From a virus: 64,000 nucleotides of DNA. Each line of letters starts with the position of its first letter. Positions within the stretch are counted from its first letter, which is position 1. The notes below the pieces were generated by a model. The model ran no database searches, had not been told where the DNA came from, and saw only the letters and a list, made by a program, of their open reading frames with translations. The stretch is taken from positions 9,143 to 73,142 of the IMG/VR virus record IMGVR_UViG_3300015607_002611. One strand, given 5' to 3'. A program made the position numbers and the translations under genes. Shown piece by piece: positions 5,433 through 57,681 of the stretch.

Positions 5433-5434
5433 TT

Positions 5435-5788: not shown

Positions 5789-5841
5789 TTATCTCGTAAA
5801 CAATTATATATAATCTGATATAATATAAAATTCATGAATAT

Positions 5842-6301: not shown

Positions 6302-7057
6302 ATGAGCGTAACATTAGAACAAATAGAAAGAGTTCAAATTAACGGTAAACGTTGGTATCAAGTAAAGCAAGGTGAGGAAATAATTGGAACATTTCCTAGT
6401 GTTACTAGTGTACTTGGTTCAACTAAAGATAAAACAGCTTTAAATAATTGGGCACAAAGAATTGGTCAAGAAGCTGCAGATAAGGTTGGTAAAGACTCAA
6501 CGGATAGGGGAACTGTAATGCATAGATTATGTGAGTTATATTTAAACTTACCTATTGACCTTTCAAATAAAGATAGATTTAATGAAACATTAGAATTAGC
6601 AAGAACTGACGAAGAGATTATTAAGTTCGACCCAAGGGCTATAATAATGGGAGCTATCTTATTTAATAATTTCTATTCAACTGGTTGTTTTGATAGAGTA
6701 AAACAAGTAATAGCACAAGAACAATTCTTATGGTGTAAAGCAGGTGGTGGATTTGCTGGAACAGTTGATAATTTCTCTTTATTAGATGATGGTGCACGTA
6801 AAGTAGTCGATTTTAAAACTGCTAAGAAAGCTAAAGCTGAAGCGTGGATTGAAGACTATAAAATGCAAGCTTCAGCATATTGTATTGCTATTTGGGAAAG
6901 AACTGGTATTAAACCAGATGGTGCTGAAATTTGGATAAGTAATGAAGTCGATAGATTCCCACAATGCTTTATGTTAAATTGGAATGATGTAACTAAATAT
7001 TTTAAATTATTTACAGAGAGATTAAATGCATTCCATGCTGCAAATCCTTTAAAATAA
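6302..7057 (+). CDS. PD-(D/E)XK nuclease, RecB/Cas4/lambda-exonuclease-like
   Basis: 'GTVDNFSLLDDG' (motif II D), 'VVDFKTAK' (D-x-K) and 'QASAYCIA' (the QxxxY motif typical of the RecB family). Confidence 0.6.
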   Translation: MSVTLEQIERVQINGKRWYQVKQGEEIIGTFPSVTSVLGSTKDKTALNNWAQRIGQEAADKVGKDSTDRGTVMHRLCELYLNLPIDLSNKDRFNETLELARTDEEIIKFDPRAIIMGAILFNNFYSTGCFDRVKQVIAQEQFLWCKAGGGFAGTVDNFSLLDDGARKVVDFKTAKKAKAEAWIEDYKMQASAYCIAIWERTGIKPDGAEIWISNEVDRFPQCFMLNWNDVTKYFKLFTERLNAFHAANPLK

Positions 7058-7091
7058 TTAATCAATATATACTACAAATAACATTTGTAAT

Positions 7092-7325
7092 ATGAAACTT
7101 AAAGGTTTTAAGCAGTTTATAGCTGAAAAACAAACAGACCCTGATTTAGTCGATAAGATGAAAGAATATTCAGACGGTCAAGGTGATACTTGCCCAAGAT
7201 GTGGTAAATCACAAGGTGAATGTGTATGTCAAGACAGAGACTATGGTAGTACTGTTAATTTACATAGATTAGGAAAAGGAAAAGTAACAAAACAAGAAAG
7301 TAATTTTAAAAACGAAAACGAGTAA
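7092..7325 (+). CDS. Small zinc-ribbon protein
   Basis: 'CPRCGKSQGECVC'. Confidence 0.35.
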   Translation: MKLKGFKQFIAEKQTDPDLVDKMKEYSDGQGDTCPRCGKSQGECVCQDRDYGSTVNLHRLGKGKVTKQESNFKNENE

Positions 7326-7327
7326 AA

Positions 7328-7645
7328 ATGGAAAAGTTTATTACATTAATTAAAAAATGGCAAAATGTTATCTTAGTAGGTTTATTTGTATTTTTATTTT
7401 TAGGACAATGTTCTACGAATAGAACTATGGATAAAATGAGAAAAGATAATGTAAAATTAACTCAAAGTATTGATAGTCTTAAAACTACTATTGAGAATTA
7501 TAAGCCAATCACTAATGAAGATTTAAAAATCGAAGGACTTAAAGCTGAGAAGAGAATGATACAGTCTGTTGATAGAAAAATCTTAGACGTTAACAGACAG
7601 GCTGAAATCGATAAGGAAATAGAAAATTTATCAAAAAAGAAATAA
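7328..7645 (+). CDS. Membrane-anchored coiled-coil protein
   Basis: N-terminal TM 'VILVGLFVFLFLGQC' followed by heptad-like charged repeats. Confidence 0.35.
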   Translation: MEKFITLIKKWQNVILVGLFVFLFLGQCSTNRTMDKMRKDNVKLTQSIDSLKTTIENYKPITNEDLKIEGLKAEKRMIQSVDRKILDVNRQAEIDKEIENLSKKK

Positions 7646-7646
7646 G

Positions 7647-8525
7647 ATGGTATACTTAACAGCCATTTGGAATTTTATAAAAAACCCTAAAAACACGAGG
7701 TTACTTGTGTTTGCGGGGGTAGTGATATTAGCTCTTTTATTTTTTAGACAATGTAATAAAGCTAATGATTTAGAACGCCAATTAGAACAACAAAAAACTG
7801 AAACAGTTCGCTTATTAAATAATGAAGAAGCTAAGAATGCTGAATTAAAGAATTATAAATTAAGTGATTCTACTAATCGTGCAATAATTCAAGGTTATCA
7901 ATTAACACAAGAAGAACTTAAAAATGAATTCAAATCATTAACAGAAGGATTTGATGACCTTAAAAAGAAAACAGCACTTGCATTAGCTAAAGGGACTATT
8001 TATTCTAAAGAAACTGTTTATATTAATACAACAGTTAAAATAGATTCAGTAGGCGTAGAACATATTACAGGAACTGATACAATGAGAGTTGATGAAGATA
8101 ATTTTAGAAAAATAACATTCGACACTCCTATTACTACTAAATATTTTAATAAGAAAGACTCAACTGAATTTGATTTTAAGAAGAGTTCTTTATTTTCAGA
8201 AACATATCCTGGTAAAACTAAAGTTACACTTGAACAAAGTATAGGATTAAAAGTAGGTTTATTCCAAGATAAAAAAGATAAGAAAGTTTATATAGTTGCT
8301 CAGACTAAATATCCAGGTGTGACTTTTACTAAATTACAAGGTGCTGATATTATGGCTGACCCTGATTCTAGAAAAGTAACAAGAGAATTTAGAAAAACAT
8401 GGGGCATCGGATTTAACTTTGGATATGGAGCAGCACTTGATTTAAAAAATAATAATTTTGTTATAGGTCCTTATTTAGGTGTAGGTTTACATTATACTCC
8501 AAAATTCCTTCAATGGGGTAAATAA
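7647..8525 (+). CDS. Membrane-anchored protein with coiled-coil and beta-rich C-terminus
   Basis: N-terminal TM 'LLVFAGVVILALLFF'. The C-terminus has a glycine/aromatic beta pattern. Confidence 0.3.
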   Translation: MVYLTAIWNFIKNPKNTRLLVFAGVVILALLFFRQCNKANDLERQLEQQKTETVRLLNNEEAKNAELKNYKLSDSTNRAIIQGYQLTQEELKNEFKSLTEGFDDLKKKTALALAKGTIYSKETVYINTTVKIDSVGVEHITGTDTMRVDEDNFRKITFDTPITTKYFNKKDSTEFDFKKSSLFSETYPGKTKVTLEQSIGLKVGLFQDKKDKKVYIVAQTKYPGVTFTKLQGADIMADPDSRKVTREFRKTWGIGFNFGYGAALDLKNNNFVIGPYLGVGLHYTPKFLQWGK

Positions 8526-8536
8526 AATAAATAGAA

Positions 8537-9466
8537 ATGAACAAAGATAAAGTTGTAAGAATAAGTATAATTTCAATTTTCGTAGCATTGTATGCAATCG
8601 CTAGTATCGTGTCTACGATTCACGTTATTGACTTTTTTGCATTAACAAACCCAAGATGGTTGGCAATAAGTTTAGCTGTTGCTTTTGAAATAGGTGCAAT
8701 GGCTTCATTGGCAGCTATTATTATTTTAGATAAAACATCAAGAACATTAGTTTGGTTCTTATTTATATTATTAACATTAATGCAAATGATGGGTAATGCC
8801 TATTATGCTTATGATAATGCTAAAGATTATGAATCATGGATGGAACTTTTCGCTTTAAATGAAGAAGAACCAATTTATCAAAAAAGAATATTAGCTATTA
8901 TATCAGGAGCTATATTACCAATTGTAGCTTTAGGTTTTATTAAATCATTAATTGATTATATTAGACCTGCACAAAAAGAATCTAATTTAGTTATAGAAAA
9001 TGAAGGTAAAGTTGGTCTAGATGAATCTCAACCTACTGCTAAATTAGAAGTAGTAGAACCTGAAAGTAAAACTGTGGCGAATGAAATACTTGAAGTACAA
9101 GAGATGGAAAAACCAGACGGTACAGCTATTAAATCTTCATTAGATTATCTTGACGAAGAAGCTATTTATAATGAAGTAATGAATGCCCCTCAGGCAGAAT
9201 CGGATTCAATTGAGTCAGTTAAGAATGATAATATAAGTGATACAATAGAAGAAGTAGCTGAACTGTCTAAAACTGACGAAGATATTAAACTAGACGTACC
9301 ATTTGAAGATGCTAAATTACAAGCTATTAAAGAAGTTAGAAACGAAGAAGAAAGTAAAGTAGCAGAAATTAAAAAGCCAAGAACTCATGTTGTTGAGGAA
9401 CCTGGTACAGGTGGTGTAAGTAGAAACTTTGGACCGCCAGATATAAATAATGGAGTAATACAATAA
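8537..9466 (+). CDS. Polytopic membrane protein with acidic C-terminal tail
   Basis: At least four hydrophobic helices in the first ~150 aa, followed by a D/E-rich tail. Confidence 0.35.
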   Translation: MNKDKVVRISIISIFVALYAIASIVSTIHVIDFFALTNPRWLAISLAVAFEIGAMASLAAIIILDKTSRTLVWFLFILLTLMQMMGNAYYAYDNAKDYESWMELFALNEEEPIYQKRILAIISGAILPIVALGFIKSLIDYIRPAQKESNLVIENEGKVGLDESQPTAKLEVVEPESKTVANEILEVQEMEKPDGTAIKSSLDYLDEEAIYNEVMNAPQAESDSIESVKNDNISDTIEEVAELSKTDEDIKLDVPFEDAKLQAIKEVRNEEESKVAEIKKPRTHVVEEPGTGGVSRNFGPPDINNGVIQ

Positions 9467-24376: not shown

Positions 24377-25231
24377 ATGTACATAAGAAAGTGCCCAACT
24401 TGTCCACGTGAAACTAAATTTAAAAGTAAGAAAGCTTATAATAGAGCAATTGAATCAAACAGAAGCTGTAAACAATGTAGTATAAGAAATAATCTTTCTG
24501 GGTATAGAAATGATGTTTCAAATGGTTTAAAGCCTAATGGATTTTTAAATAAAACACATACAGAAGAATTTAAAAACAGGCTAAGAATAGAAAGAATAGG
24601 TAAAAAAGTTCATAATAGTAAATCTAAATCTAAAATTAGTAAAGCTTTATCCGGTGAAAACAATCCAATGTTTGGTAAATCTTTCTATGATATTTGGGTT
24701 GAAAAATATGGAAAAGAAGTTGCAGATAAAAAGTTAAAAAAATTTAAGTTTAAAATTAGTAAAGCAACTGAAGGTAAAAACAACCCAATGTTCGGTAAAC
24801 CTTCGCCCCAAGGAAGTGGTAACGGTTGGAAAGGTTGGTACAAAGGAACGTTCTTTAGAAGTTTACACGAGCTATCTTTCTTGATTAATTATATAGAAAG
24901 ATTTAAAATGCCATTTGAATCAGGTGAACAAGCTAAATGGGCAATTGAATATAGAAAACCTACAGGTGAAATTGGTACATATTTTTCAGACTATGTTATC
25001 AATGGGAAATATATGGTCGAAATAAAACCTGAAAAACTTAAAAGTAGCCCAACTAATAAAGCTAAACGCAAAGCAGCTGAAAAGTTTTGTAAAGCTAAAG
25101 GTTTAAAATATAAAATGATATCGCCGATATTATTAACTGAAACAAATATCCTATTTTTACATAAAAAGAATATAATTAAATTTACAGACATATATGAAAA
25201 ACGATTCAGAAAGCAATATACATTTTCATAA
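24377..25231 (+). CDS. Homing-endonuclease-like protein: N-terminal zinc finger, NUMOD3-type repeats, C-terminal PD-(D/E)XK-like motif
   Basis: 'CPTCPRE...CKQC', repeated 'ENNPMFGKS' and 'KNNPMFGKP' (NUMOD3-like), and 'FSDYVINGKYMVEIKPEK' (D...ExK). Confidence 0.45.
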   Translation: MYIRKCPTCPRETKFKSKKAYNRAIESNRSCKQCSIRNNLSGYRNDVSNGLKPNGFLNKTHTEEFKNRLRIERIGKKVHNSKSKSKISKALSGENNPMFGKSFYDIWVEKYGKEVADKKLKKFKFKISKATEGKNNPMFGKPSPQGSGNGWKGWYKGTFFRSLHELSFLINYIERFKMPFESGEQAKWAIEYRKPTGEIGTYFSDYVINGKYMVEIKPEKLKSSPTNKAKRKAAEKFCKAKGLKYKMISPILLTETNILFLHKKNIIKFTDIYEKRFRKQYTFS

Positions 25232-25853
25232 TTTAAGTGTTACCCGCGAGATGCGAGAAAAATTAAATGGTCATAAACCGTGTATAATTTGGTTCACTGG
25301 GTACAGCGGAAGTGGAAAATCCACAATAGCTAATATTTTAGATACTTATCTACATAAAGGTGGCTATCACACTTATATCTTAGACGGCGATAATATTCGC
25401 TCAGGTTTAAACAAGAATTTAGGTTTCAGTGACGATGACCGTAAAGAAAACATTCGCCGTATTAGTGAAGTAGCTAAATTATTTGCTGATTCTGGTACAA
25501 TTGTATTAACAGCATTCATTTCACCTTTTATTGAAGATAGACAAATTGCACGTGATATTCTTTCAAAAGATTTCAATTTTATTGAAGTTTATGTTGAAGC
25601 AGATTTAGAAACATGTGAGGCGCGTGACCCTAAAGGTCTTTACAAAAAAGCAAGAGCTGGTCAAATCAAAAACTTTACTGGAATTGATAGTCCTTATGAA
25701 GCTCCTATAAATCCAGAAATAACATTAAAAACTTCCCAGTATAGTCCAGACTTAAGCGCATATACAGTTCTTCATTATTTATACGATAATAATATTTTAC
25801 CTTTAGGACTAAAGCAAGATGCTGTTAATAATTCTAAAACATTAAGTCACTAA
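25194..25853 (+). CDS. cysC: Adenylyl-sulfate (APS) kinase
   Basis: 'IIWFTGYSGSGKSTIA', 'LDGDNIRSGLNKNLGFSDDDRKENIRR', 'VLTAFISP' and 'CEARDPKGLYKKARAGQIKNFTGIDSPYEAP' are near-identical in pattern to E. coli CysC. Confidence 0.93.
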   Translation: MKNDSESNIHFHNLSVTREMREKLNGHKPCIIWFTGYSGSGKSTIANILDTYLHKGGYHTYILDGDNIRSGLNKNLGFSDDDRKENIRRISEVAKLFADSGTIVLTAFISPFIEDRQIARDILSKDFNFIEVYVEADLETCEARDPKGLYKKARAGQIKNFTGIDSPYEAPINPEITLKTSQYSPDLSAYTVLHYLYDNNILPLGLKQDAVNNSKTLSH

Positions 25854-34772: not shown

Positions 34773-35750
34773 ATGAAGCCAATTAACTTAAAATATAATA
34801 AATCGTACGGTGCTTTTCTTTTAGAAAAGAAAATGAATGAAAATGAAGATACTGATTTATTTAAAATTTATTTAGCAGTAAGACGTTCTAGTGGCCATAG
34901 ATGGTGGACTTATAAAGGATTCGCAGCAGATAATTATTTTATTCAAATTACTGAAGAAAATATCGATAAAATTAAAGTTGATGATAGTCTTCCAATTTTA
35001 ACATATTCAACTGATATTATTAATAGATTACTTGATGCAGGTAAAATTAAAAAGAGTAATATTATTAACAATCCAAAATATGTTAAATTATCAGGTTCTA
35101 AAAAAGACTTTCATGAATTTATAGGTGAAGATGAAAATTTACCTAAAACAGTATTCACTCAAAAAGAAGCAATGAATTTAAACTTCCCTGTCATTGCAAA
35201 ACCTACAGCAGGTCATTCAGGATTAGGTATTCAAGTTTTTCAAAATGCTGATGAATTAAAAGAATCAGATGAAAATAAATTTGATTTATATTCTGAATTC
35301 GTAGATAAGAAAGAAGAACATAGATTTATTAATTATAAAGGTAAACCTATCTTTTGGATGGAAAGAGTTCCAATGAATGATAAGGCTAAAAATGGGAAAG
35401 GTAAAGCTGAAGAAAAAACAATGTTCCAATATATTAAAAGAAATGTAGACGATATCCCTGAAGATATGTTAAACGTTCTTAAAAAATATTGTGATAAATT
35501 AAAAGATCTTCCTTATATTTGTTTTGATATTATGAGAGACCAAGATGATAATATTTTTATTATAGAATCAAACTCTCAGCCGGGTGTTCCTTTTGATTCT
35601 ACTATTGAAATCTATAAAGTATTATTTGAGGATTTTTATGGTAGACCTGTAGATGAAAAGACTTCAAAAGTTTTAGATGAATACGCTAAGAAACTTATAA
35701 AGAAAACTGTATCTAAGGATGATGGTAGATTTAAAGATGAATCGAAATAA
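34773..35750 (+). CDS. ATP-grasp ligase (RimK/glutathione-synthetase-like)
   Basis: 'FPVIAKPTAGHSGLGIQVF' and C-terminal 'ICFDIMRDQDDNIFIIESNSQPGV'. Confidence 0.5.
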   Translation: MKPINLKYNKSYGAFLLEKKMNENEDTDLFKIYLAVRRSSGHRWWTYKGFAADNYFIQITEENIDKIKVDDSLPILTYSTDIINRLLDAGKIKKSNIINNPKYVKLSGSKKDFHEFIGEDENLPKTVFTQKEAMNLNFPVIAKPTAGHSGLGIQVFQNADELKESDENKFDLYSEFVDKKEEHRFINYKGKPIFWMERVPMNDKAKNGKGKAEEKTMFQYIKRNVDDIPEDMLNVLKKYCDKLKDLPYICFDIMRDQDDNIFIIESNSQPGVPFDSTIEIYKVLFEDFYGRPVDEKTSKVLDEYAKKLIKKTVSKDDGRFKDESK

Positions 35751-36283: not shown

Positions 36284-36886
36284 ATGGGTGCTTTTAAAGT
36301 AAAAGGATATAAGGAATTTTTAAATGAAAAATGGTCAGGCGATCATATATCTATATTTGATATAGATGATACATTAGTTGTGACTGCAGCAAAGATTAAA
36401 GTATATGATATGCAAGATGATACTGAATATTCTTTAACACCTGCTGAGTTTAATAAATATGAAAGGCAATCACATCACCATGTTGATTATAGTGAATTTG
36501 ATGACCCTAATTTATTATTACAAGGTAAACCAATTAAATGGGTATTAAATATACTTAAGAAAACAATGAATAAAGAAAAAGCTGTAGGTATAATTACAGC
36601 TAGACAAGATAAACAACTTATTATTGATTTTCTTAAAAAGCATGATGTTAAAATAAATCCAGATTTTGTATTTGCAGTTAATGACCCTAAAACTAAATAT
36701 AAGGGTAGTAATGCTGAAAGAAAGAAACAGGCATTTAAAGATTTAATTGATATGGGCTTTAGAGATTTCAGATTCTTTGATGATAATCTTGATAACTTAG
36801 AATATGCAAAACAATTAGAACATGAATATGATGATGTTACAGTTGAGACTAAACACATTATAGATAAATGGATCCCGCGCATCTAA
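36284..36886 (+). CDS. HAD-superfamily phosphatase (DxDxT type)
   Basis: Motif I 'ISIFDIDDTLVV', motif II 'VGIITARQD' and motif IV 'RFFDDN'. Confidence 0.6.
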   Translation: MGAFKVKGYKEFLNEKWSGDHISIFDIDDTLVVTAAKIKVYDMQDDTEYSLTPAEFNKYERQSHHHVDYSEFDDPNLLLQGKPIKWVLNILKKTMNKEKAVGIITARQDKQLIIDFLKKHDVKINPDFVFAVNDPKTKYKGSNAERKKQAFKDLIDMGFRDFRFFDDNLDNLEYAKQLEHEYDDVTVETKHIIDKWIPRI

Positions 36887-36913: not shown

Positions 36914-37633
36914 ATGATTATTTATAAAATAACTAATACTATTAATAATAAAATTTATATAGGACAAAGTAGCTTAACATTAAAACAGAGAATTAATAGA
37001 CATTTACATCAATCAAGTAAGGATAATCCTAAAATGAAAATTTGTAGAGCTATTAAAAAATATGGATTTTCTAACTTTAAATTTGAAACAATAGAAGATA
37101 ATATAACAAATTTAGATTTATTAAATGAAAGGGAAATGTATTGGATTTCTTTATTAAAAAGTAATAATAAAGAAATAGGTTATAATACTTTACCAGGCGG
37201 CAGATTTAATCATATAATTAAATATAATCCGGGTATGAGTAATAAAAATCATAGTGAAGAATCTAAAGATAAAATTAGAAAAGCATTTAAAGGTAAGAAG
37301 CGACCGCAATCACATATTGATGCAATGAAAAAATATTATTTAGATAATCCTAATAGACCTAAAAGAATTGTTAGTAAAGAAAGTAGAATAAAAATGAGTT
37401 TAAGTAAATCAGGTTCTAATAATCCGTGGTTTGGTAAACAAGGTCATAGATATGGTAAAGGTACTAATATTTATCAATATAATTTAGAAGGTATTTTAAT
37501 TAAAAAATGGGATAATTCAAATATAGCATCTAAGGAACTTAATATTGATAGATTAGCTATTGATAGAAGATGCAAAAAAAAATCAAATAAACCATATATG
37601 GGTTATTTGTGGTCTTATAATAAAAATATATGA
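36914..37633 (+). CDS. GIY-YIG homing endonuclease
   Basis: 'MIIYKITNTINNKIYIGQSS...RINRH', NUMOD-like 'SEESKDKIRKAFKGKKRP' and a C-terminal HTH-like region. Confidence 0.85.
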   Translation: MIIYKITNTINNKIYIGQSSLTLKQRINRHLHQSSKDNPKMKICRAIKKYGFSNFKFETIEDNITNLDLLNEREMYWISLLKSNNKEIGYNTLPGGRFNHIIKYNPGMSNKNHSEESKDKIRKAFKGKKRPQSHIDAMKKYYLDNPNRPKRIVSKESRIKMSLSKSGSNNPWFGKQGHRYGKGTNIYQYNLEGILIKKWDNSNIASKELNIDRLAIDRRCKKKSNKPYMGYLWSYNKNI

Positions 37634-38121
37634 AAGAAAAAAAAGAATCTTCGGCTGGTATAGTTTTTATTTATAATAATAAACTTTTACTTGTACATCA
37701 TACTAACAGTAAGTGGTTGGGGTCTTTTGGGTTTCCTAAGGGTAGAATTGACAAAGGTGAAACACCTTTACAAACTGCTATAAGAGAAGCATACGAGGAA
37801 GTAGGTATTAAAGTAACACCTGGTATGCTAGATAAGACACAATATGAATTAAACTACAATTTTAAAAAGAAAGAAACAAAGATATATAAAACGGCATACT
37901 ATTTCATATGTAATGTTCAGAATTTATCTGACATTGGATTAGAAAAAGAAGTCGTTCCTAAATCTCAATTACAGTTAGAAGAAGTTGATTGGGCTGGATT
38001 TGTTGATTATAACGAAGCTAAAAAGAGATTAGGAAAAGTATTTAAACCTTTATTAAAACATTATAAAGTTAATGAAAGTTTAATGCTTAAAACATTTGAA
38101 GAATTTATAAATAACAAATGA
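37630..38121 (+). CDS. Nudix hydrolase
   Basis: Nudix box 'GFPKGRIDKGETPLQTAIREAYEEVGI'. Confidence 0.85.
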   Translation: MKEKKESSAGIVFIYNNKLLLVHHTNSKWLGSFGFPKGRIDKGETPLQTAIREAYEEVGIKVTPGMLDKTQYELNYNFKKKETKIYKTAYYFICNVQNLSDIGLEKEVVPKSQLQLEEVDWAGFVDYNEAKKRLGKVFKPLLKHYKVNESLMLKTFEEFINNK

Positions 38122-42180: not shown

Positions 42181-43035
42181 ATGAAAATGCATACACTTAA
42201 ACAATCGTATAGTAACTGTAAAATATATCACCCTTCTGGAAAACTAATGTGCGTTAATTCTGAAAAGAAAGGGCGTTGGTATGTAGAGAAAACTGGTGCA
42301 ACAATATTAAGTAAAAATCCAGATGGAAGTTTAGCTGAAATACAATTAACATTTGAGCCGAAGGGCCATGGTTACGATGAAGATGATTTATTTGGTTTAA
42401 GTGTACAAGAAGCAAGATGTGTAGTTTCCGGTGAAAGTGATATTTCAAAATTAACAAAACACCATATTGTGCCAATATCATATAGAAGGCATTTACCTCT
42501 TGAATATAAAAGTCGTAACCACCATGATGTCGTTTATATTACTGAAGATTTACATGAACATTATGAGAGAATTGCTGATGAATTCCGTAATGAATTAGCT
42601 AAGAAATATAATGCAATGTCATATAGTGATACTAGAGTACATTTAGCAAATGCCATGTCTAGTGAACGTGTCAGACTTATAAAAAGAGTAAAAGGTTATG
42701 CTAACTCATTAATAATTTCTAGTCAGATTCCTTCAGATAAGGAACAGTTAATGAAAGATACAGTGTTATCATTTATCAAAGATAATTATACAGCTATAAG
42801 TCTAGAAAACTGTTTAAGTGAAGAGTTTTTAACATTACTTATTTATGATATCCAGAAAGAGATTGATGAAGTTTTAGAAGCTAATCGAATTGATGCTTAT
42901 AAAGATTTAATTGACAAGGTTGGCGATTATGATGAATTCGTTAAAATCTGGCGTCAGCATTTCGTAGATACCATGAAACCTCAGTTTTTACCAATAGGCT
43001 GGAGTGTTGATTATAAAACTAAAACCAGAATATAA
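42181..43035 (+). CDS. Hypothetical protein (weak HNH-like His cluster)
   Basis: 'HHIVPISYRR...NHHDVV...DLHEHY'. Not convincing. Confidence 0.25.
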   Translation: MKMHTLKQSYSNCKIYHPSGKLMCVNSEKKGRWYVEKTGATILSKNPDGSLAEIQLTFEPKGHGYDEDDLFGLSVQEARCVVSGESDISKLTKHHIVPISYRRHLPLEYKSRNHHDVVYITEDLHEHYERIADEFRNELAKKYNAMSYSDTRVHLANAMSSERVRLIKRVKGYANSLIISSQIPSDKEQLMKDTVLSFIKDNYTAISLENCLSEEFLTLLIYDIQKEIDEVLEANRIDAYKDLIDKVGDYDEFVKIWRQHFVDTMKPQFLPIGWSVDYKTKTRI

Positions 43036-43052
43036 CCTCGCAAATATAATAC

Positions 43053-43083
43053 TTTGGGGGCTCGACAATAATTATTATATTTA
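43053..43083 (+). promoter_or_regulatory. Bacteroidetes-type promoter CTTTGGGGG-N14-TTATATTTACT
   Basis: TTTG at 43053-56, 19 nt, then TATATTTA at 43076-83. The ATG is at 43098. Confidence 0.55.
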
Positions 43084-43097
43084 CTTAAATAAACAAA

Positions 43098-43562
43098 ATG
43101 AAAAAAGTATTAGTAATAAGTAAACGCGAGTTTGATAAAGTAATGCGCGATAATAAAATCACTGCAGAAAATATCGAAAATAGAAGTAAAGTCGCATTTA
43201 TTTCTATTAATGATACTTTCGGCACAACTGAAACACCTTTCTTTAAAGAAGACAAGGAAAATTTGCGCATCTTGTTTTTTGATGATGTTACTGAAGATAC
43301 CAAGTTAAATTGGGGCACAGCAAAAGCATTTAACAAAGAACAAGGTAAAATTGTTTTAGAATTCTTAAACAAAATCAAGGATCGCGATACATTAATAGTA
43401 CACTGTCACGCTGGAATTTCTAGGAGTGGTGCAGTAGGTCAATTCGCTGCTGATTACTTTGGTTTAGATTACAAAGAATTCAGAAACTTAAACCCACACA
43501 TTCACCCTAATTCTACCGTTACAAGAATATTAAGAGAATTAGCTCGTGAACAAGAAGACTAA
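43098..43562 (+). CDS. Cys-based (CX5R) phosphatase, dual-specificity/polynucleotide-phosphatase-like
   Basis: P-loop 'VHCHAGISRSG'. Confidence 0.75.
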   Translation: MKKVLVISKREFDKVMRDNKITAENIENRSKVAFISINDTFGTTETPFFKEDKENLRILFFDDVTEDTKLNWGTAKAFNKEQGKIVLEFLNKIKDRDTLIVHCHAGISRSGAVGQFAADYFGLDYKEFRNLNPHIHPNSTVTRILRELAREQED

Positions 43563-44577
43563 CATATTATTATCAAGGGACGAATTCAGAGAAGGTGTTT
43601 TTGAGAGAGATGGGCATAAATGCGTTGTTTGTAAAGAGCAAGGCAAAGATGCCCATCACATTCTCGAAAGAAGATTATTCAATGACGGTGGTTATTATTT
43701 AGATAACGGAGCAACGTTATGTGAAAAACATCATATTGAAGCTGAACAGACAACATTAAGTTGTGATACTATCAGAGAGCTTTGTGGTATTGAAAACTTA
43801 ATCATACCTGAACATTTTTACTCTGACTATGATTATGATAAATGGGGTAATATTATTCAGCCTAATGGATTGAGATTAAAGGGTGAATTGTTTTATGATG
43901 AATCAGTTCAGAAGATATTAAATCAAGGTAATGTTTTGAATTTATTTCAAAAATATGTAAAATATCCAAGAACTTATCATTTACCATGGAGCAATTTACT
44001 TAAAGACGATAGAAAATTAAGTGACGATTCATTCTTTCATGGAAAGAGAGTTATAATGACACTTAAAATGGATGGTGAAAATACAACAATGTATAATGAT
44101 TATATTCATGCACGTTCTTTAGAATCTAAGTCACATGAAACTAGAAATTGGGTCAAAGGCCTTTGGTCTAGAATCTCATATCTTTTAGATGAGAATATGA
44201 GATTATGTGGAGAGAATTTATATGCTGTTCATTCAATTGAATATAATGATTTACCTTCATATTTCATGCCATTCTCATTATGGATGGACAATAAGTGTTT
44301 AAGTTGGGATGAAAGTGTAGAGTACTTTAAAATTTTAGGTTTAGAACATGTTCCAGTTATCTATGATGGAATTTATGATAAAGATAAAATCATTGAAACA
44401 TTTTCTAAATATGAAAAAGAACACGAAGGCTTCGTAATTAGAATTGCAGATGAATTCAATTATGGTGAATTTAGAAGATGTGTCGCTAAATTCGTTAGAC
44501 CTGAGTTTAGACAAATAGTTAATAATTCACATGGTCACTGGATATCAAAGAAAGTGACTGTAAATAAATTAAAATAA
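43546..44577 (+). CDS. HNH/zinc-finger domain fused to ATP-dependent nucleotidyltransferase ligase (RNA-ligase-like)
   Basis: N-terminal 'CVVCKEQGKDAHHILERRLF...NGATLCEKHH' is HNH-like. Ligase motifs are I 'LKMDGEN', III 'LCGENLYAVHS', IV 'HEGFVIRIA' and V 'AKFVRPEF'. Confidence 0.6.
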   Translation: MNKKTNILLSRDEFREGVFERDGHKCVVCKEQGKDAHHILERRLFNDGGYYLDNGATLCEKHHIEAEQTTLSCDTIRELCGIENLIIPEHFYSDYDYDKWGNIIQPNGLRLKGELFYDESVQKILNQGNVLNLFQKYVKYPRTYHLPWSNLLKDDRKLSDDSFFHGKRVIMTLKMDGENTTMYNDYIHARSLESKSHETRNWVKGLWSRISYLLDENMRLCGENLYAVHSIEYNDLPSYFMPFSLWMDNKCLSWDESVEYFKILGLEHVPVIYDGIYDKDKIIETFSKYEKEHEGFVIRIADEFNYGEFRRCVAKFVRPEFRQIVNNSHGHWISKKVTVNKLK

Positions 44578-44578
44578 A

Positions 44579-44974
44579 ATGAAAACTTCATTTGATATGG
44601 ATAATACACTTGGCGAATCATGGGTGCAATTAATTGCTAAAGCCATGATTGCAGGTGGTCATGAAGTTTGGATTATAACTGCGAGATGTGATGATAGATT
44701 ACATAATCCGAATATTGCAAAAATTAATTCATGTAATAGAGACCTTTTCGCAATTGCTGAAAGGTTAGGAATTCCTGATGAAAGAATTGTAATGACTGAA
44801 GGTTCATTTAAACATAAAACTATTAAAAGGCTTGGAATTGAATTACATTTCGATGATGTACCAGAAGAAGTTGAGTTAATTAATCGAAATACAGACTGTA
44901 AAGCTCTTTTAATTTGGGACGAATTTTGTTCAGCGTCAATAAAACATGAACAATTTGCAAAAGGAATATTTTAA
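44579..44974 (+). CDS. Small HAD-like phosphatase
   Basis: Motif I 'SFDMDNTLG', 'WIITAR' and 'HFDD'. Confidence 0.45.
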   Translation: MKTSFDMDNTLGESWVQLIAKAMIAGGHEVWIITARCDDRLHNPNIAKINSCNRDLFAIAERLGIPDERIVMTEGSFKHKTIKRLGIELHFDDVPEEVELINRNTDCKALLIWDEFCSASIKHEQFAKGIF

Positions 44975-45003
44975 GAGAGTATATAATAAAATAATTTATT
45001 AAA

Positions 45004-45252
45004 ATGTGGCCTTTTAGTAAACCCACTATAGAAGTTGAATGTCGTCTTCCTGATATGTTAAGAGAAGACCAGGACTATTTATGTCAGGGTATACTTGAAG
45101 ACCTAGATGACGAATTTGGATTTTGTTATAATATACGACTTAAGTCGAGTGATATAAACAAAGTCACAATTGTAGATGGCAGAAAAAGCAAACAATTAGA
45201 AGAACGAGCGATTCGGATAGAAATTTATCGAAGGATAAACAACCTTAAGTAA
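45004..45252 (+). CDS. Small hypothetical protein
   Basis: ORF only. Confidence 0.25.
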   Translation: MWPFSKPTIEVECRLPDMLREDQDYLCQGILEDLDDEFGFCYNIRLKSSDINKVTIVDGRKSKQLEERAIRIEIYRRINNLK

Positions 45253-45256
45253 TCCG

Positions 45257-45279
45257 AAGCCTCGATATAATCGAGGCTT
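45257..45279 (+). promoter_or_regulatory. Stem-loop (AAGCCTCGAT-ata-ATCGAGGCTT) abutting promoter -33; no U-run
   Basis: 10-bp perfect stem whose 3' arm supplies the CTTTGGGGG element. Confidence 0.4.
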
Positions 45280-45308
45280 TGGGGGCTTAAGAAAAATAAT
45301 TATATTTA
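45278..45308 (+). promoter_or_regulatory. Bacteroidetes-type promoter
   Basis: TTTG at 45278-81, 19 nt, then TATATTTA at 45301-08. This string is identical to the 43053 promoter over 'TTATATTTACTTAAA'. Confidence 0.55.
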
Positions 45309-45325
45309 CTTAAAATCATAAAACC

Positions 45326-45445
45326 ATGGCAACACTAAGAAAAATAGGGAAGTTCTTAGCGAACTTATTTAAAATTAAAGGAACACCAAGAAATATGGAC
45401 GGTAGCACTGACCTGTATTTCCCTGAAGACCACTTAGGAATTTAA
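45326..45445 (+). CDS. Small ORF (39 aa) directly downstream of promoter
   Basis: ATG 17 nt after the -7 element, the same spacing as other promoter-gene pairs. Sequence 'MATLRKIGKFLANLFKIKGTPRNMDGSTDLYFPEDHLGI'. Confidence 0.35.
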   Translation: MATLRKIGKFLANLFKIKGTPRNMDGSTDLYFPEDHLGI

Positions 45446-45456
45446 AAAATTAAAAA

Positions 45457-46623
45457 ATGGAACTAGCATTAATAAATGAAATAAAAAGATTTGGACTAGA
45501 AAAGACTGCAGAAACTTACAAACTTTCTGTGAAGGATTATGGTCATAAAGTACTTATTAAGTACGACCAAATTGAATCTGACATGTCTGAACTTCCTGTA
45601 CAAGACGCAAGAGGTATAATCCTTGAGAAAGGTACTTGGAAAGTTATGTCTTTAGCTTTTAGAAAATTTTTCAACTCAGCCGAAACACAAGCCGCTAAGA
45701 TAGATTGGGATTCAGCTTTGATTTTAGAAAAGTTAGATGGAACATTAATTCAATTATACTGGGACTGGGTTTTAAAAGAATGGTGCGTAGGTACTACAGG
45801 TACTGCCGATGGTTCAGGTGAAGTGAATAACAAATTTGGGACTACATTTGCAGACTTGTTCTGGTCTACTATTGGAAAATATCCTGGTAAATTCCACGGT
45901 GTTGATAAAATGTCAAAAAATGAACGTAACGAACGTTTAAATGAATTTTTAAACGATAACTTTTGTCATGTTTTTGAATTAACTACACCTTATAATATTG
46001 TGGTTGCACCCCATGCTACATCTAACGCTACTTTGTTGGCTGCAAGAAATGTTATTACTCTTGAAGAACTTTCATTTGATAATCTAGCAGGGACTGCAAT
46101 TGAGTTAGATGTTCCTTTAGTAAAAGTGTTTGATATAAATGCTTCGAACACAGGTCATGTAATAGCTACATTGGAAGGTATGCCTTTCTCTGAAGAGGGA
46201 TATGTAGTAGTTGATAATAAATTTAATCGTATCAAGATTAAGAACCCTACATATGTTCAAGTACATCACTTGAAGTCAAAGACTTCTGAGCATGCTATAA
46301 TGGAAATTGTTAAGACTAATGAAGTTGAAGAATTTGCGGCGACATTTCCTGAAAGACGTGAAGAAATCTTTAAGCTTAAAGATGGGTTTGATAAATTAAA
46401 AGAATCATTAAAGGAAACTTGGAATGAATTAGAACCATTTAAGCCTCGTATTATCACTAAAGAAGAGAATAAGAGATTTGCAATGGCAGTTTTTGATATT
46501 ACAGGAAAGAAAGGTTGTAAAAATCATACAGGTTTATTTTTCTCTTTAAAAGATGGTAAAGTAGGAAGTGTAGAAGAATACCTTAAAGATTACGACAATA
46601 AAAAATTATATACAGAACTATAA
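45457..46623 (+). CDS. ATP-dependent RNA ligase (Rnl1-like nucleotidyltransferase)
   Basis: Motif I 'LILEKLDGTLIQ' (KxDG), motif IV 'EEGYVVVDN' and motif V 'RIKIKNP'. 388 aa. Confidence 0.65.
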   Translation: MELALINEIKRFGLEKTAETYKLSVKDYGHKVLIKYDQIESDMSELPVQDARGIILEKGTWKVMSLAFRKFFNSAETQAAKIDWDSALILEKLDGTLIQLYWDWVLKEWCVGTTGTADGSGEVNNKFGTTFADLFWSTIGKYPGKFHGVDKMSKNERNERLNEFLNDNFCHVFELTTPYNIVVAPHATSNATLLAARNVITLEELSFDNLAGTAIELDVPLVKVFDINASNTGHVIATLEGMPFSEEGYVVVDNKFNRIKIKNPTYVQVHHLKSKTSEHAIMEIVKTNEVEEFAATFPERREEIFKLKDGFDKLKESLKETWNELEPFKPRIITKEENKRFAMAVFDITGKKGCKNHTGLFFSLKDGKVGSVEEYLKDYDNKKLYTEL

Positions 46624-47191: not shown

Positions 47192-48223
47192 ATGGAATTT
47201 AAAAAATATAATGAAATAGAAAACTCTTACAGGGATGCTTTCATGAATAGGATTAATACTATGATTGCAGAAGGTCATGTTGAGAATGACTTTGTCGTTC
47301 TTGAAAAAGTACATGGTTCTAACTTCTCTTTCTGGTATGACGGTGAAACATTAAAGACAGGTAAGAAATCTGGATTCGTAGGAGGTGAAGGTGAGGACTT
47401 CTTTAATTCTCATATTATTAAAGCTAAATACGCTAATAATATTAAAAATTTATATGAACACTTTAATTTGAAATTTGGTAAAATTACCAATATGACAGTT
47501 TACGGTGAATTATGTGGTGGTTATTACCCAGGTGTAAAAAGTGATGACCCTTCTATTAAGAAAGTACAAAGTGGAGTTTGGTACTCTCCTAATTTAGAAT
47601 TTTATGCTTTTGATATTACAGTAGATGGGAAATACTTAAATGCAGATGATGTATCTATGTTATGTAGAGCATTTGACATTTTCCATGCTAAGATATTATT
47701 CAGAGGTAAATTAGAAGATTGTATGAAATATCCAAATGAATACAACTCTTTAATTTCTGGATGGTTAGGTTTACCTGAAGTTGAAGGTGGTAATATCTGT
47801 GAAGGTAATATCATTAAACCTAACAAAGCTGTATTCTTCCATAATGGCTCTAGAGTTATTATCAAGAACAAAAATGATAAGTGGTCTGAAAAAGAAAAGC
47901 CTGCAGGAAATAAAGAAAAGAAAGAAAGACCAAATTTATCTGAAGCCGGTAATAAAGTATTAGAAGAAGCTTTAACTTATGTAACTGATAATAGATTAAA
48001 GAACGTTCTTTCTAAATGGGAAGGTCCAGTTACAAGTAAAGACTTTGGTCGTTTAATGCAATTAATGAATGTTGATGCATTAGAAGATTTACATAAAGAC
48101 TTTGGCCCTGAATTATTAGCTTTAGAAAAGGAAGAAATTAAGTTAATTAACAAATCTATTGGTAATAAGGCTTCTATTTTAATAAGGAAAAACTTTTTAA
48201 ATATAATCGATAATAATTTCTGA
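47192..48223 (+). CDS. RNA ligase 2 family (Rnl2-like)
   Basis: Motif I 'VLEKVHGSNFSF' (compare T4 Rnl2 EKIHGTNFS), motif III 'VYGELCGG', motif IV 'EGNIIKP' and motif V 'VIIKNK'. 343 aa. Confidence 0.75.
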   Translation: MEFKKYNEIENSYRDAFMNRINTMIAEGHVENDFVVLEKVHGSNFSFWYDGETLKTGKKSGFVGGEGEDFFNSHIIKAKYANNIKNLYEHFNLKFGKITNMTVYGELCGGYYPGVKSDDPSIKKVQSGVWYSPNLEFYAFDITVDGKYLNADDVSMLCRAFDIFHAKILFRGKLEDCMKYPNEYNSLISGWLGLPEVEGGNICEGNIIKPNKAVFFHNGSRVIIKNKNDKWSEKEKPAGNKEKKERPNLSEAGNKVLEEALTYVTDNRLKNVLSKWEGPVTSKDFGRLMQLMNVDALEDLHKDFGPELLALEKEEIKLINKSIGNKASILIRKNFLNIIDNNF

Positions 48224-48735: not shown

Positions 48736-49127
48736 TGGCTGAAACCGATTTTCTATATATGAATAAGAAAACCCTAGGTTATATCTTAGATTGGTGCGTA
48801 AATGAATACGGTCATTCTAAACATGTTACACATGGTTTACTTAAATATAAAATAAATTATCGGTGCATACCTAAAGGTTGGTTTAAATCAGCTGAAGTTA
48901 TGATTGAAGTTAATCCGAAAAATCATACGAGTTTAATTGATTTTGTACATACTGCAATACATGAGTATACACATTATATGCAAGACCAAGACTTATATGA
49001 TAAGTACTCTGAAGAACATGATGATGATACTAATCCATTGGAAATTGAAGCTGATATGGTAGCAATGAGAGATAAGAAAAGATGTTTAAGAAAAATTAAA
49101 AAGTTAATAGAAGAAGATGAAAGATAA
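48735..49127 (+). CDS. Putative HExxH zinc metallopeptidase-like protein
   Basis: 'VHTAIHEYTHYMQD'. Confidence 0.35.
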   Translation: MAETDFLYMNKKTLGYILDWCVNEYGHSKHVTHGLLKYKINYRCIPKGWFKSAEVMIEVNPKNHTSLIDFVHTAIHEYTHYMQDQDLYDKYSEEHDDDTNPLEIEADMVAMRDKKRCLRKIKKLIEEDER

Positions 49128-49896
49128 TTTGGGCGACCGTATAAAAAACAACTACGAAGATAGAACGAGATTTTCTTTACCTCGTAGAACATATACAATT
49201 ATTAGATTAGATGGTAAAGCATTCCACACTTATACAAGAGGATTGGAAAAACCATTTGATATGGATTTAATCAATGATATGGCGGAAGCTACTAAATATC
49301 TTTGTGAAAATATCCAAGGTTGTATTTTAGGTTATACACAGAGTGATGAGATTTCACTTTTATTAACTGACTTTGAGAAGCCAGGGACAAGTGCATGGTT
49401 TGATGGTAATATTCAAAAGATGGCAAGTATTTCAGCTTCAATGGTTACAGCTAAGTTTAATGATATTAGAAGAGGGCGTGAGGCTCACAAGAATATTGCA
49501 TTATTTGATAGTAGAGTATTTACAATATCTGATAGAATTGAAGTAATGAACTATTTTATTTGGAGACAGAAAGATGCTACACGTAACTCAATAAGTATGG
49601 CAGCACATGCATTATGTGGCCACAAGGCTTGTATGGGTAAATCAAGCTCTGATAAGCAAGAAATGATTTTCCAAAAAGGTGTTAATTGGAATGATTATCC
49701 AACATCTTGTAAAAATGGAACAATGATTACAAAAAAGACTGGTGTTATGAAGAATCTTAATCCTAAACCAGGGCAACCTGAGATGTATGAAAGAAGCTTC
49801 TGGCAAATTGAAGGTGCTAAAAACTTTAGAACATTTTTGCCTAAATTTTTACCTACAATGAAAGTTGAATTAGAAGACAATGATGTTTTATCTTAA
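49117..49896 (+). CDS. Thg1-like protein (tRNA-His guanylyltransferase family, 3'-5' nucleotidyltransferase)
   Basis: 'IIRLDGKAFHTYT' (Thg1 VRLDGRNFH), 'GYTQSDEISLLL' (AYGQSDEYSFVF) and 'MNYFIWRQKDATRNSISMAAHAL' ([23 protein letters not shown]). Confidence 0.8.
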   Translation: MKDNLGDRIKNNYEDRTRFSLPRRTYTIIRLDGKAFHTYTRGLEKPFDMDLINDMAEATKYLCENIQGCILGYTQSDEISLLLTDFEKPGTSAWFDGNIQKMASISASMVTAKFNDIRRGREAHKNIALFDSRVFTISDRIEVMNYFIWRQKDATRNSISMAAHALCGHKACMGKSSSDKQEMIFQKGVNWNDYPTSCKNGTMITKKTGVMKNLNPKPGQPEMYERSFWQIEGAKNFRTFLPKFLPTMKVELEDNDVLS

Positions 49897-49905
49897 ATAA
49901 ATAAT

Positions 49906-50661
49906 ATGTATACTAAAAATGAACTAGCAAATTTTATAGCATTTGACTTAGAAACAGCAAGTGGTTATAAAGACCTTGATACTCTTAATGAAGAAAACCC
50001 TCGTTTAGGTGAATTATGGAATAAACGTTGTGAATATCTTCGTACAAAACATGATGATAATAAGCCTTTAACAAATGCTGAGATATATGAACAGAAAACA
50101 GGTTTACAAGCGGAATATGGCAAGATTGTATGTATTAGCATCGCATATGTTAGATATAATAAGGATAATCAGCCCGTAATTAAATCTAAAAGCTTTAAAA
50201 GCCATGATGAAAAAGAATTATTAGAAGCTTTCTTTAATTTTTTAACATCAGCTAAAGACAAATTACCAAATGCAGTATTCTGTGGCCATAATATTAAAAG
50301 ATTTGATATTCCATTTTTATGTAAGCGTGCATTAATTAATGGTTTAAAAGTACCAGCTCAATTTAATACTATTGGAAAGAAACCATGGGAATTAAGTATT
50401 GTTGATACTGCTGAACTTTGGTCGTTTGGTGCATGGCAAGAATCTTTCACTTCTTTAGACACTTTAACAGCAGTATTAAATATTCCATCACCTAAAAGTG
50501 ATATTGATGGAAGTAAAGTATCAGAAGTGTTCTGGCAAGAAGGTGATTTAGATAGAATCGCTAAGTATTGTGAACAAGATGTTGCAGCTACTATTAATGT
50601 ACTTATAGCATTATCTGGATTTGAAATAGCAGAGCCTAGCAACATTACATCTGTTGAATAA
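49906..50661 (+). CDS. DnaQ-like 3'-5' exonuclease (DEDDy)
   Basis: Exo I 'IAFDLETAS', Exo II 'CGHNIKRFDIPFL' and Exo III 'YCEQDVAAT'. Confidence 0.75.
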   Translation: MYTKNELANFIAFDLETASGYKDLDTLNEENPRLGELWNKRCEYLRTKHDDNKPLTNAEIYEQKTGLQAEYGKIVCISIAYVRYNKDNQPVIKSKSFKSHDEKELLEAFFNFLTSAKDKLPNAVFCGHNIKRFDIPFLCKRALINGLKVPAQFNTIGKKPWELSIVDTAELWSFGAWQESFTSLDTLTAVLNIPSPKSDIDGSKVSEVFWQEGDLDRIAKYCEQDVAATINVLIALSGFEIAEPSNITSVE

Positions 50662-56800: not shown

Positions 56801-57256
56801 ATGAAAGTAAATTTAGATACCGAATTATTCGCAGTAGTAAATACTAAAACCAATGAATTAGTTCCAAGATATACAGGTGGCTTTTTCTGGACAAGAAGAG
56901 GTGATGCGGAAAGAAAATTTGATGAAATGCTCAGGAAAGCATCGCATTATAGTTTAATGGTTTGTAAATTAAATGTGACTGAAATGCTATCAGGCCCACA
57001 AATCATGGAAGAAAGACGAATCGCTGCAGAAAAGGCCGCAGAGATTGCAAGACAAAAAAGAGAAGCTGAACAGCTTAGAAATCAAAGAATCGAAGAACTT
57101 AAAAATGAACTTAAAGAATTGACAGGTCAAAGAGAACTGGATATTCCAACTATTAAAACATTCTTAGTCAGTAACTTAATTGTACCTGACTATAAAGTTA
57201 AAATTGAAAACGTTCTTAACGAACTAAGCACTTTAAATTATTCAAAAGTACGATAA
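56801..57256 (+). CDS. Hypothetical coiled-coil protein
   Basis: Charged helical middle region. Confidence 0.3.
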   Translation: MKVNLDTELFAVVNTKTNELVPRYTGGFFWTRRGDAERKFDEMLRKASHYSLMVCKLNVTEMLSGPQIMEERRIAAEKAAEIARQKREAEQLRNQRIEELKNELKELTGQRELDIPTIKTFLVSNLIVPDYKVKIENVLNELSTLNYSKVR

Positions 57257-57681
57257 TGAAAAAAGCACTATTTTTATTAAGAGGTTTGCCTGGAAATGGT
57301 AAGACAACCGCTGCAGAAATTCTTTCTGAAGCCCCTGGCATCATGCCTTACCCTGTATATTCTGCTGATGACTATTTTTACGAAAATGGTCCAAATCCTG
57401 GTCAATATGACTTTAACAGGGAAAAACTAGGTGCTGCACATAAACAATGTCAAGACAGGACTGAATTAGCAATGAAGTCTGGTGTAGAAAAAGTATTTGT
57501 GGCCAACACATTTACTACTGATAAAGAAATTAAGCCTTATAAAGAGCTTGCAGAAAGATACGGTTATATGTTGATGTCAATAATTGTTGAAAACCGTCAT
57601 GGCAACAAATCAATACATGGTGTTCCTGAGGAAACGATGGAAGCTATGGAAAAACGTTTTACTGTTAAGTTAAGAGGTTAA
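57256..57681 (+). CDS. P-loop kinase, polynucleotide-kinase-like
   Basis: Walker A 'LLRGLPGNGKTTAA' (compare T4 Pnk GCPGSGKST). 141 aa, kinase domain only. Confidence 0.55.
   Translation: MKKALFLLRGLPGNGKTTAAEILSEAPGIMPYPVYSADDYFYENGPNPGQYDFNREKLGAAHKQCQDRTELAMKSGVEKVFVANTFTTDKEIKPYKELAERYGYMLMSIIVENRHGNKSIHGVPEETMEAMEKRFTVKLRG

Follow-up and report, generated by a model that had tools for sequence, protein, structure and literature searches.

A jumbo-phage HNH–RNA ligase gene and its probable insertion into an older phosphatase pair

RNA ligases of the Rnl2 family with N-terminal HNH domains have been described by Iyer et al. (2021; PMC7824862), citing Burroughs and Aravind (2016), and it was proposed that the HNH domain attacks host or competitor DNA. 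A gene of this type is present in the virus record IMGVR_UViG_3300015607_002611. The stretch that was analyzed, here called the window, covers 64 kb of this record (positions 9,143 to 73,142), has 29% G+C, and has nearly all of its genes on the + strand. The gene (43546..44577, +) encodes a protein of 343 amino acids (aa). It lies between the genes for a dual-specificity-type cysteine phosphatase of 154 aa (43098..43562, +), which carries HCHAGISRSG, and a small capless HAD-type phosphatase of 131 aa (44579..44974, +), with the string FDMDNT...IITAR...K...HFDD. It appears that the protein belongs to an established family of HNH–RNA ligases from jumbo phages, that its HNH module is optional, and that its gene is an accessory cassette inserted in an older phosphatase pair. 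This reading is given a probability of about 0.7.

An earlier note on the same DNA had called the fusion "not a standard architecture" and had described the three genes as a self-contained heal-and-seal unit. Neither description is supported. The fusion of HNH and ligase is a known, widespread architecture and is not unusual; it makes up the large family PHROG 24030 and was published by Iyer et al. (2021). What is new here is the insertion of the gene into a phosphatase pair and the evidence for an optional HNH module.

The HNH–ligase protein and its family

Residues 8-343 of the protein aligned with positions 3-341/342 of the PHROG 24030 profile, annotated 'RNA ligase', at an E-value of 1.4e-125. 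Full-length homologues are present in Ralstonia phage RsoM2USA, Caulobacter phages CcrSC/CcrBL9/J4, Salicola phage SCTP-2, and Acinetobacter phage ME3. In tblastn, those of RsoM2USA, CcrSC/CcrBL9, SCTP-2, and ME3 aligned over residues 8-343 and were 46-56% identical. Halogranum virus HGTV-1 has a more distant full-length homologue, and XacN1, Atu_ph07, and the Lak phages have relatives that consist of the ligase only. The RsoM2USA and SCTP-2 records annotate the gene and its neighbors as hypothetical proteins. A large protein database contained 7,522 homologues. The N-terminal 137 residues alone retrieved 375 cluster representatives (E<=1e-10), in which residues 8-137 aligned as a single block at the N-terminus, ahead of the ligase in near-complete proteins. 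Some of these representatives are 127-138 aa long and are either stand-alone genes or fragments.

Three parts can be recognized in the protein. The first is an HNH (beta-beta-alpha-metal) nuclease core with a zinc site (residues 8-80; 43567..43785, +), and several HNH PHROGs match residues 13-76. The second is a conserved middle region (residues 81-137; 43786..43956, +) that contains YDKWGN and RxKGELFYDESVQKIL and always accompanies the core. The third is a nucleotidyltransferase (ligase) domain (residues 138-343; 43957..44574, +) with the motif I lysine at K174 and with no C-terminal OB or Rnl2-C domain. Conservation was followed in 80 further homologues from viral contigs, which share 51-79% identity with the window protein. 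Compared with that protein, the HNH core was on average 66% identical, the middle region 64% (79 homologues), and the ligase domain 56%. An AlphaFold2 model built from 45 homologues gave a compact two-domain protein (predicted local distance difference test, pLDDT, 88.8; predicted template modelling score, pTM, 0.81).

All hallmarks of an HNH nuclease are present in the module: the catalytic histidine, the structural asparagine, the metal-ligand histidine, and the beta-beta-alpha core. The catalytic and zinc residues C26, C29, H37, H38, N54, C59, and H63 are invariant, and the fourth zinc position is occupied by H (64 sequences) or by C (13). The HNH call of the earlier note is thus upheld, and the loss of metal-binding geometry that it had named as a refutation was not seen. 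Because the catalytic and zinc-binding residues are invariant, the nuclease is probably active. A reading of the module as an inactive zinc finger was rejected, as every catalytic residue is invariant.

In fold comparison, the nearest structural relatives of the HNH domain were the DNA-cutting enzymes IscB, McrA, Cap5, and GVE2 HNH. In sequence searches against solved structures, the protein and its family profile gave weak matches to the IscB HNH and zero ligases. These relatives, along with the intact catalytic residues, are what would be expected if the HNH domain were an offensive DNase that acts on host or superinfecting phage DNA independently of the fused RNA-repair ligase, as in the proposal of Iyer et al. 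(2021). Such a role would leave the stable in-frame fusion with its conserved linker unexplained, and no immunity or self-protection factor is evident. It is considered unlikely. The PADLOC defence models gave zero matches for the cysteine phosphatase, the HNH–ligase, and the HAD protein.

The ligase domain matched Pfam RNA_ligase PF09414 over residues 168-317 at 103.3 bits, where the cut-off is 27. Residues K174, D176, G177, E223, E294, G295, R299, and K315 are invariant, as is motif I as a whole (K174-M-D-G-E-N), in agreement with the lysine that had been proposed for adenylation. Motif III (E223), motif IIIa (F240/F243), and motif IV (E294-G295...R299) are likewise present and invariant, and F240/F243 aligns with 'FYAFDI' of an Rnl2 encoded elsewhere in the window. 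Five homologues, namely P0236 with 530 aa and P0179, P0190, P0237, and P0258 with about 700 aa each, carry inteins that sit exactly inside motif I (KMDGE|C...HN|CTTMY). The inteins of the four about-700-aa proteins contain a Hint domain and a LAGLIDADG endonuclease. Their position indicates that the ligase active site is important. The C-terminal tail NNSHGHWISKK (residues 326-336; 44521-44553) is near-invariant in the close homologues, with H331/W332 in 75-78 of 81 sequences. It was modelled at a low pLDDT of about 55 and may be a binding or metal site.

Neither TIGR02307, the strict Rnl2 model, nor T4_Rnl2_C matches the protein. Since TIGR02307 failed and similarity to the Rnl2 of the window was not significant, the ligase domain is a separate branch of PF09414. 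Its best structural neighbors in fold comparison were RNA ligases. The preference for RNA over DNA is taken from the Pfam family and from these neighbors, because pairwise sequence similarity to the Rnl2 of the window or to solved ligases was undetected. The C-terminal 205 residues would then be an autonomous ATP-type nucleotidyltransferase. K174 would be adenylated, and the enzyme would most likely seal RNA breaks with 3'-OH and 5'-phosphate ends, such as those left in tRNAs when defence nucleases of the host cleave them. Residues 1-137 would make up an HNH nuclease that has its zinc site, is catalytically intact, and is dispensable to the ligase. The RNA substrate, the ATP cofactor, and the activity and target of the HNH nuclease are all predictions from these comparisons.

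The optional HNH module and the history of the gene pair

The HNH module is absent from some orthologous genes. At one locus, 3' of an orthologous DNA ligase gene, the gene can be full-length, ligase-only, or absent. It is full-length in L099, L059, L048, L123, L050, and L128. It is ligase-only, encoding 208-219 aa, in L100, L101, L104-L108, L114, and L116-L119, and it is absent at twelve such loci. The ligase-only genes at this locus start at 'KYPRTYHLPWS', which is residue 139 of the window protein; ligase-only relatives overall begin at residue 131-139. Two of them, at 5833-6462 in L100 and 5874-6500 in L104, can be taken as examples, each 3' of the ATP-dependent DNA ligase. Over the ligase domain, identity between the ligase-only proteins of L100/L101 and the HNH-bearing proteins of L059/L099 is 77-80%, and these are closer to each other than either is to HNH–ligases from other lineages. 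From these sequences, the ligase domain appears to function autonomously when encoded by itself, and a loss or gain of the HNH module appears to have taken place within a lineage. The module is therefore optional. The suggestion in the earlier note that the HNH domain generates the ends that the ligase reseals is weakened by these orthologues as an obligatory mechanism; cooperation could still occur where both domains are present.

Two further observations concern the ligase-only genes. In L100 and L104, the two ligase genes are separated by an open reading frame (ORF) of 157 aa, whose N-terminus is hydrophobic and resembles a signal peptide. In L006, a 377-kb phage contig, there are two extra ligase-only PF09414 paralogues (1044-1739 and 5354-6001), one of them directly 5' of the HNH–ligase gene.

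The three genes of the window were re-derived exactly as they had been reported. The cysteine phosphatase gene overlaps the HNH–ligase gene by 17 nucleotides (nt), and the HAD gene starts 1 nt past the HNH–ligase stop. The HNH–ligase starts with GTG, the sole in-frame start that preserves the N-terminus, which is also the start chosen by gene callers on identical contigs. The same three-gene arrangement is present in L004 and L005, which are from the same strain as the window.

The arrangement is different in five contigs from three to four lineages (L009-L013). In these, the two phosphatase genes are directly adjacent with no HNH–ligase between them. These contigs have a common backbone at 40-84% protein identity, which is shared with the window. 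It includes homologues of the ORFs at 39813 and 42181, the cysteine phosphatase (65-78% identity), the HAD protein, a conserved 82-aa ORF (45004..45252, +; 40-72% identity, in synteny), and the Rnl1, Rnl2, Thg1-like, and PolB-exonuclease-like proteins. The backbone ORF at 42181-43035 encodes a conserved 284-aa protein with an HNH-like string (KHHIVP...NHHD...HEH) and had no significant family match in Pfam, PHROGs, NCBIfam, or PADLOC.

The junctions indicate how the two arrangements are related. In L009-L012, the stop of the cysteine phosphatase gene overlaps the start of the HAD gene by 17 nt, and the GTG of the window HNH–ligase is located at exactly that spot. The HAD gene of the window has a new start, 'TAA A ATG AAA ACT', and is three to five codons shorter than its relatives. 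The closest relative, L013, shares this derived start. The end of its cysteine phosphatase gene, '...TTA AAT AAA GAA TAA A ATG', reads as the window phosphatase joined to the last HNH–ligase codons, and the junction looks like an in-frame deletion of the HNH–ligase of about 1,021 nt. The most economical history would be that the HNH–ligase gene was inserted into a coupled phosphatase pair and was then lost in the L013 line. The host site of the cassette would be an older, translationally coupled pair of end-processing genes, with the cysteine phosphatase first and the HAD phosphatase second. Measured from the cysteine phosphatase stop, the HNH–ligase gene starts where the HAD gene starts in relatives, and it probably re-uses that start site.

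The surroundings of other HNH–ligase genes were also explored. Neither phosphatase profile was found within 6 kb of any of 80 other HNH–ligase genes (0/80). The closest homologues, at 79% identity, are in unrelated gene contexts. Relatives of an acetyltransferase that adjoins one close homologue (L016) were sought for presence or absence in a second lineage, and none were found. Given the five relatives without the ligase and the 80 loci without either phosphatase, the triplet is not a conserved unit. It appears from these gene orders to have arisen by accident in one lineage, when the gene was inserted into an older pair of phosphatase genes, and not to be a fixed repair machine.

Among the real neighbors of the HNH–ligase gene, the most frequent is a gene for an ATP-dependent DNA ligase, which was found immediately 5' of it in 9 of the 80 loci. 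This neighbor, and the lack of a C-terminal RNA-specific domain, could suggest that the enzyme seals nicks in DNA or DNA/RNA hybrids, with the HNH as a nicking enzyme in phage DNA metabolism. That would be at odds with its best family, Pfam RNA_ligase, with its RNA-ligase structural neighbors, and with the location of the window gene in an RNA-repair island. The nine loci may also represent a single phage clade. DNA sealing is very unlikely as the function of this enzyme.

The same patterns of gain and loss bear on whether the HNH is a homing-type DNA endonuclease that mobilizes the ligase gene. It would cut the empty phosphatase/HAD junction in co-infecting relatives, and repair would copy the gene in; loss of the HNH after fixation would leave ligase-only genes. 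Close relatives differ in whether they have the gene at one precise junction, and there are signs that it was gained as well as lost. Its homologues have no conserved neighborhood across the 80 loci, its nearest ones included, and all three states occur at the single DNA-ligase-linked locus. The region is also a hotspot for homing endonucleases, with GIY-YIG genes beside Rnl1 in L012 and L003 and at 36914-37633 in the window, and the inteins of relatives have LAGLIDADG endonucleases. Free-standing homing endonucleases usually diverge fast. The HNH is more conserved than the ligase (66% against 56%), with catalytic residues invariant across very different phages. The module matched at the protein N-terminus, ahead of the ligase in near-complete proteins, and is joined by a conserved linker. 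The composition profile of the window has no anomaly across the HNH–ligase gene. Homing by the HNH is possible and, on balance, doubtful.

A bolder form of this idea is equally tentative. The gene could be self-mobilizing cargo, in which an HNH homing nuclease spreads a fused RNA-repair ligase among co-infecting giant phages through cycles of invasion (the phosphatase junction here), fixation, and HNH loss (the ligase-only orthologues). More radically, the HNH could trim damaged RNA ends to 3'-OH and 5'-phosphate, so that tRNAs would be repaired without a kinase or phosphatase.

Several points weigh against an accessory RNA ligase with an optional HNH module, the reading preferred here. Motif V of the ligase is K315-F-V317, which has one lysine and is atypical. 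BLASTP and hhalign gave no significant pairwise similarity between the HNH–ligase and the Rnl2 of the window, and the ligase domain matched no solved ligase at the sequence level. A literature search for biochemistry on any member of the HNH–ligase family found none. The conservation of the HNH and the confident compact two-domain model would also fit cooperating domains. Finally, the direction of change at the junction, insertion here or deletion elsewhere, rests on parsimony.

Transcription unit, phosphatases, and the RNA-repair island

The earlier note placed a promoter for the three genes at 43053-43083. A scan with the sigma-70 consensus found nothing at that position. The claim is supported in another form, as a promoter-like motif, CTTTGGGG-N17-TTATATTTAC (43052..43084, +), is located 13 nt 5' of the cysteine phosphatase ATG and is kept in the alignment of L009, L011, L012, and L013. 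A more general form, CTTTGGGG-N17-TTATATTTA(C/A), has eight copies on the + strand of the window (39763, 43052, 45277, 53294, 55761, 56320, 56750, and 58161), each 3-24 nt 5' of an ORF start, whereas the - strand lacks a set of this kind. This phage probably uses the motif as its type of promoter. The motif presumably resembles the -33 TTTG / -7 TAnnTTTG promoter type of Bacteroidota. The next copy after 43052 is at 45277-45309, beyond the 82-aa ORF, which suggests a transcription unit of four genes: cysteine phosphatase, HNH–ligase, HAD, and the 82-aa ORF, which would probably be the last. Co-transcription is predicted here from the spacing of the motif, and the HNH–ligase would be transcribed from the promoter of the phosphatase pair. 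Searches with the 82-aa ORF found no family match. The tRNA and Rfam scans of the whole window gave zero matches despite its heavy content of RNA-repair genes, so the locus is not explained by an RNA element or intron.

The cysteine phosphatase has the P-loop HC103HAGISR109S and a general acid, D63. The window protein scored 25 bits with Pfam DSPc, below the cut-off of 33.5, and matched phrog_5614 at 2e-19. All 41 of its homologues match DSPc (best 8e-9), with D63, C103, R109, and S110 invariant, and the family profile matches solved DUSP structures at 1e-8. The call of a CX5R phosphatase in the earlier note is supported. PTP-SAK matches were weak (18 bits where the cut-off is 27, E 0.003) and were found for 4 of the 41 homologues. 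In two other phage lineages, distant homologues are located beside RNA ligases. In L135 (5001-5751), the gene is 1.1 kb from an Rnl1 gene and has a 17-nt overlap with the next ORF. In L136 (5001-6251), it is followed 7 nt later by a different PF09414 ligase. These positions support a role in RNA end processing.

The call of a HAD-like protein is also supported. The protein has the motifs D6xD8xT10, T34, K78, and D92D93, which align with those of the Pnkp phosphatase domain. Its family profile gave noise alone against solved structures, and it did not match the HAD_SAK models (PF18143 and PF10307). The coupled pair of cysteine phosphatase and HAD genes recurs beside RNA ligases and is a candidate module for the healing of RNA ends.

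The phosphatase pair is part of an RNA-repair island that also encodes Rnl1, Rnl2, a Thg1-like enzyme, and, as a gene of its own, a Pnk-like kinase, in keeping with the heal-and-seal theme that had been proposed. The Rnl1-type RNA ligase of 388 aa (45457..46623, +) matches PF09511 at 8.7e-14 and phrog_562 at 2e-40. The canonical Rnl2-type RNA ligase of 343 aa (47192..48223, +) scored 197.1 bits with TIGR02307, for which the cut-off is 197.15 (E 5e-58), and PF09414 and T4_Rnl2_C are recorded on an identical gene in L003. There are thus three RNA ligases within 5 kb, the HNH–ligase included. A Thg1-like 3'-5' nucleotidyltransferase of 259 aa (49117..49896, +; PF04446 Thg1 on an identical gene in L003) is followed in the row by a PolB-exonuclease-like protein (49906-50661).

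A stand-alone P-loop kinase of 141 aa (57256..57681, +) matches PF13671 AAA_33 at 1.4e-8 and residues 2-141 of T4 PseT by BLASTP at E 1e-5. The triplet itself has no 5' kinase, and this gene, 12.7 kb away, is the probable one. The kinase at 57256 and the HAD protein at 44579 look, from their sequences, like a Pnkp split into two genes. At this distance, the repair toolkit is dispersed and not self-contained.

These neighbors allow the claim of a self-contained unit to be weighed, in which the HNH would make breaks or trim ends, the phosphatases would clean the termini, and the ligase would reseal. The ends that HNH nucleases produce, 3'-OH and 5'-phosphate, can be used directly by a ligase. 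By the same token, ends made by the HNH would require no phosphatase. The three genes are tightly packed behind one promoter-like motif, the fusion is ancient with catalytic residues invariant in both domains, and the two-domain model is compact (pTM 0.81). PMC12409363 cites the degradation of tRNAs by PtuB, the HNH nuclease of Retron-Eco7. Against this, the triplet is confined to this lineage, ligase-only orthologues occur, and relatives keep the phosphatase pair in the absence of the ligase. The unit also lacks a kinase, and the 82-aa ORF is probably co-transcribed with it. An integrated unit of this kind is quite unlikely, more so than an offensive DNase.

Some variation and other genes were noted around the island. 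In L003, from the same strain, the region 7034-9104 corresponds to 44579-46623 of the window. Here the HAD protein is cut short after residue 109, the 82-aa ORF has gone, and there is a GIY-YIG gene that encodes 239 aa. Rnl1 is reduced to residues 1-87 (84% identical) and 233-388 (100%). This could be homing-endonuclease-driven co-conversion from an L012-like donor, or it could be an assembly chimera. The window gene at 36914-37633 is of the GIY-YIG/NUMOD3 homing-endonuclease type and overlaps a NUDIX hydrolase gene (37630-38121) by 4 nt. A second ORF with a DxDxT string (IFDIDDT; 36284-36886) had no family match and is near an ATP-grasp-like protein (34773-35750). An adenylylsulfate (APS) kinase (25194-25853; PF01583, 4.9e-71) is a probable auxiliary metabolic gene.

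Comparison with known systems

The HNH–ligase family is abundant in giant phages, with thousands of database homologues and with inteins that target its active site. Once the target of the HNH is found, it could indicate either how phages answer host defences that cleave tRNAs or how useful genes spread from one phage to another. The window is a clean natural experiment for this. One backbone can be compared in forms that have the gene and forms that lack it, and the junctions are resolved to single nucleotides, which provides defined substrates for homing.

Free-standing HNH homing genes of T4-like phages, such as mobE, resemble the window gene in that an HNH gene has conserved genes on both sides and is found in some relatives but not in others. 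In the window, however, the HNH is highly conserved and forms an in-frame fusion with a conserved enzyme of large size. The Swiss Army Knife proteins (PTP-SAK and HAD_SAK_1/2) are similar in that cysteine phosphatases of the dual-specificity type and HAD phosphatases occur in an RNA-ligase context, and at one relative's locus a HAD_SAK_2 is located 3.5 kb from the HNH–ligase. The window phosphatases differ in being separate proteins, with a weak PTP-SAK match (PF22784, below its cut-off) and no HAD_SAK match.

The T4 pathway of Pnkp and Rnl1 is also comparable, as the window has an Rnl1, a HAD protein with motifs like those of the Pnkp phosphatase, and a P-loop kinase like that of Pnkp. Unlike in T4, the kinase is encoded 12.7 kb away from the phosphatase by a gene of its own, a cysteine phosphatase is coupled to the HAD gene, and there are three ligases. 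When compared with T4 Rnl2 and the Naegleria/Deinococcus Rnl5-type ligases, the HNH–ligase is without the Rnl2 C-terminal domain. Its N-terminal module is an HNH nuclease and not an OB-like domain, and its motif V is K-x-V and not K-x-K. The closest system is the jumbo-phage HNH-Rnl2 family, PHROG 24030, which has the same architecture, length, and motifs as the window protein. The window differs from this family not in architecture but in its genomic setting, an insertion into a phosphatase pair.

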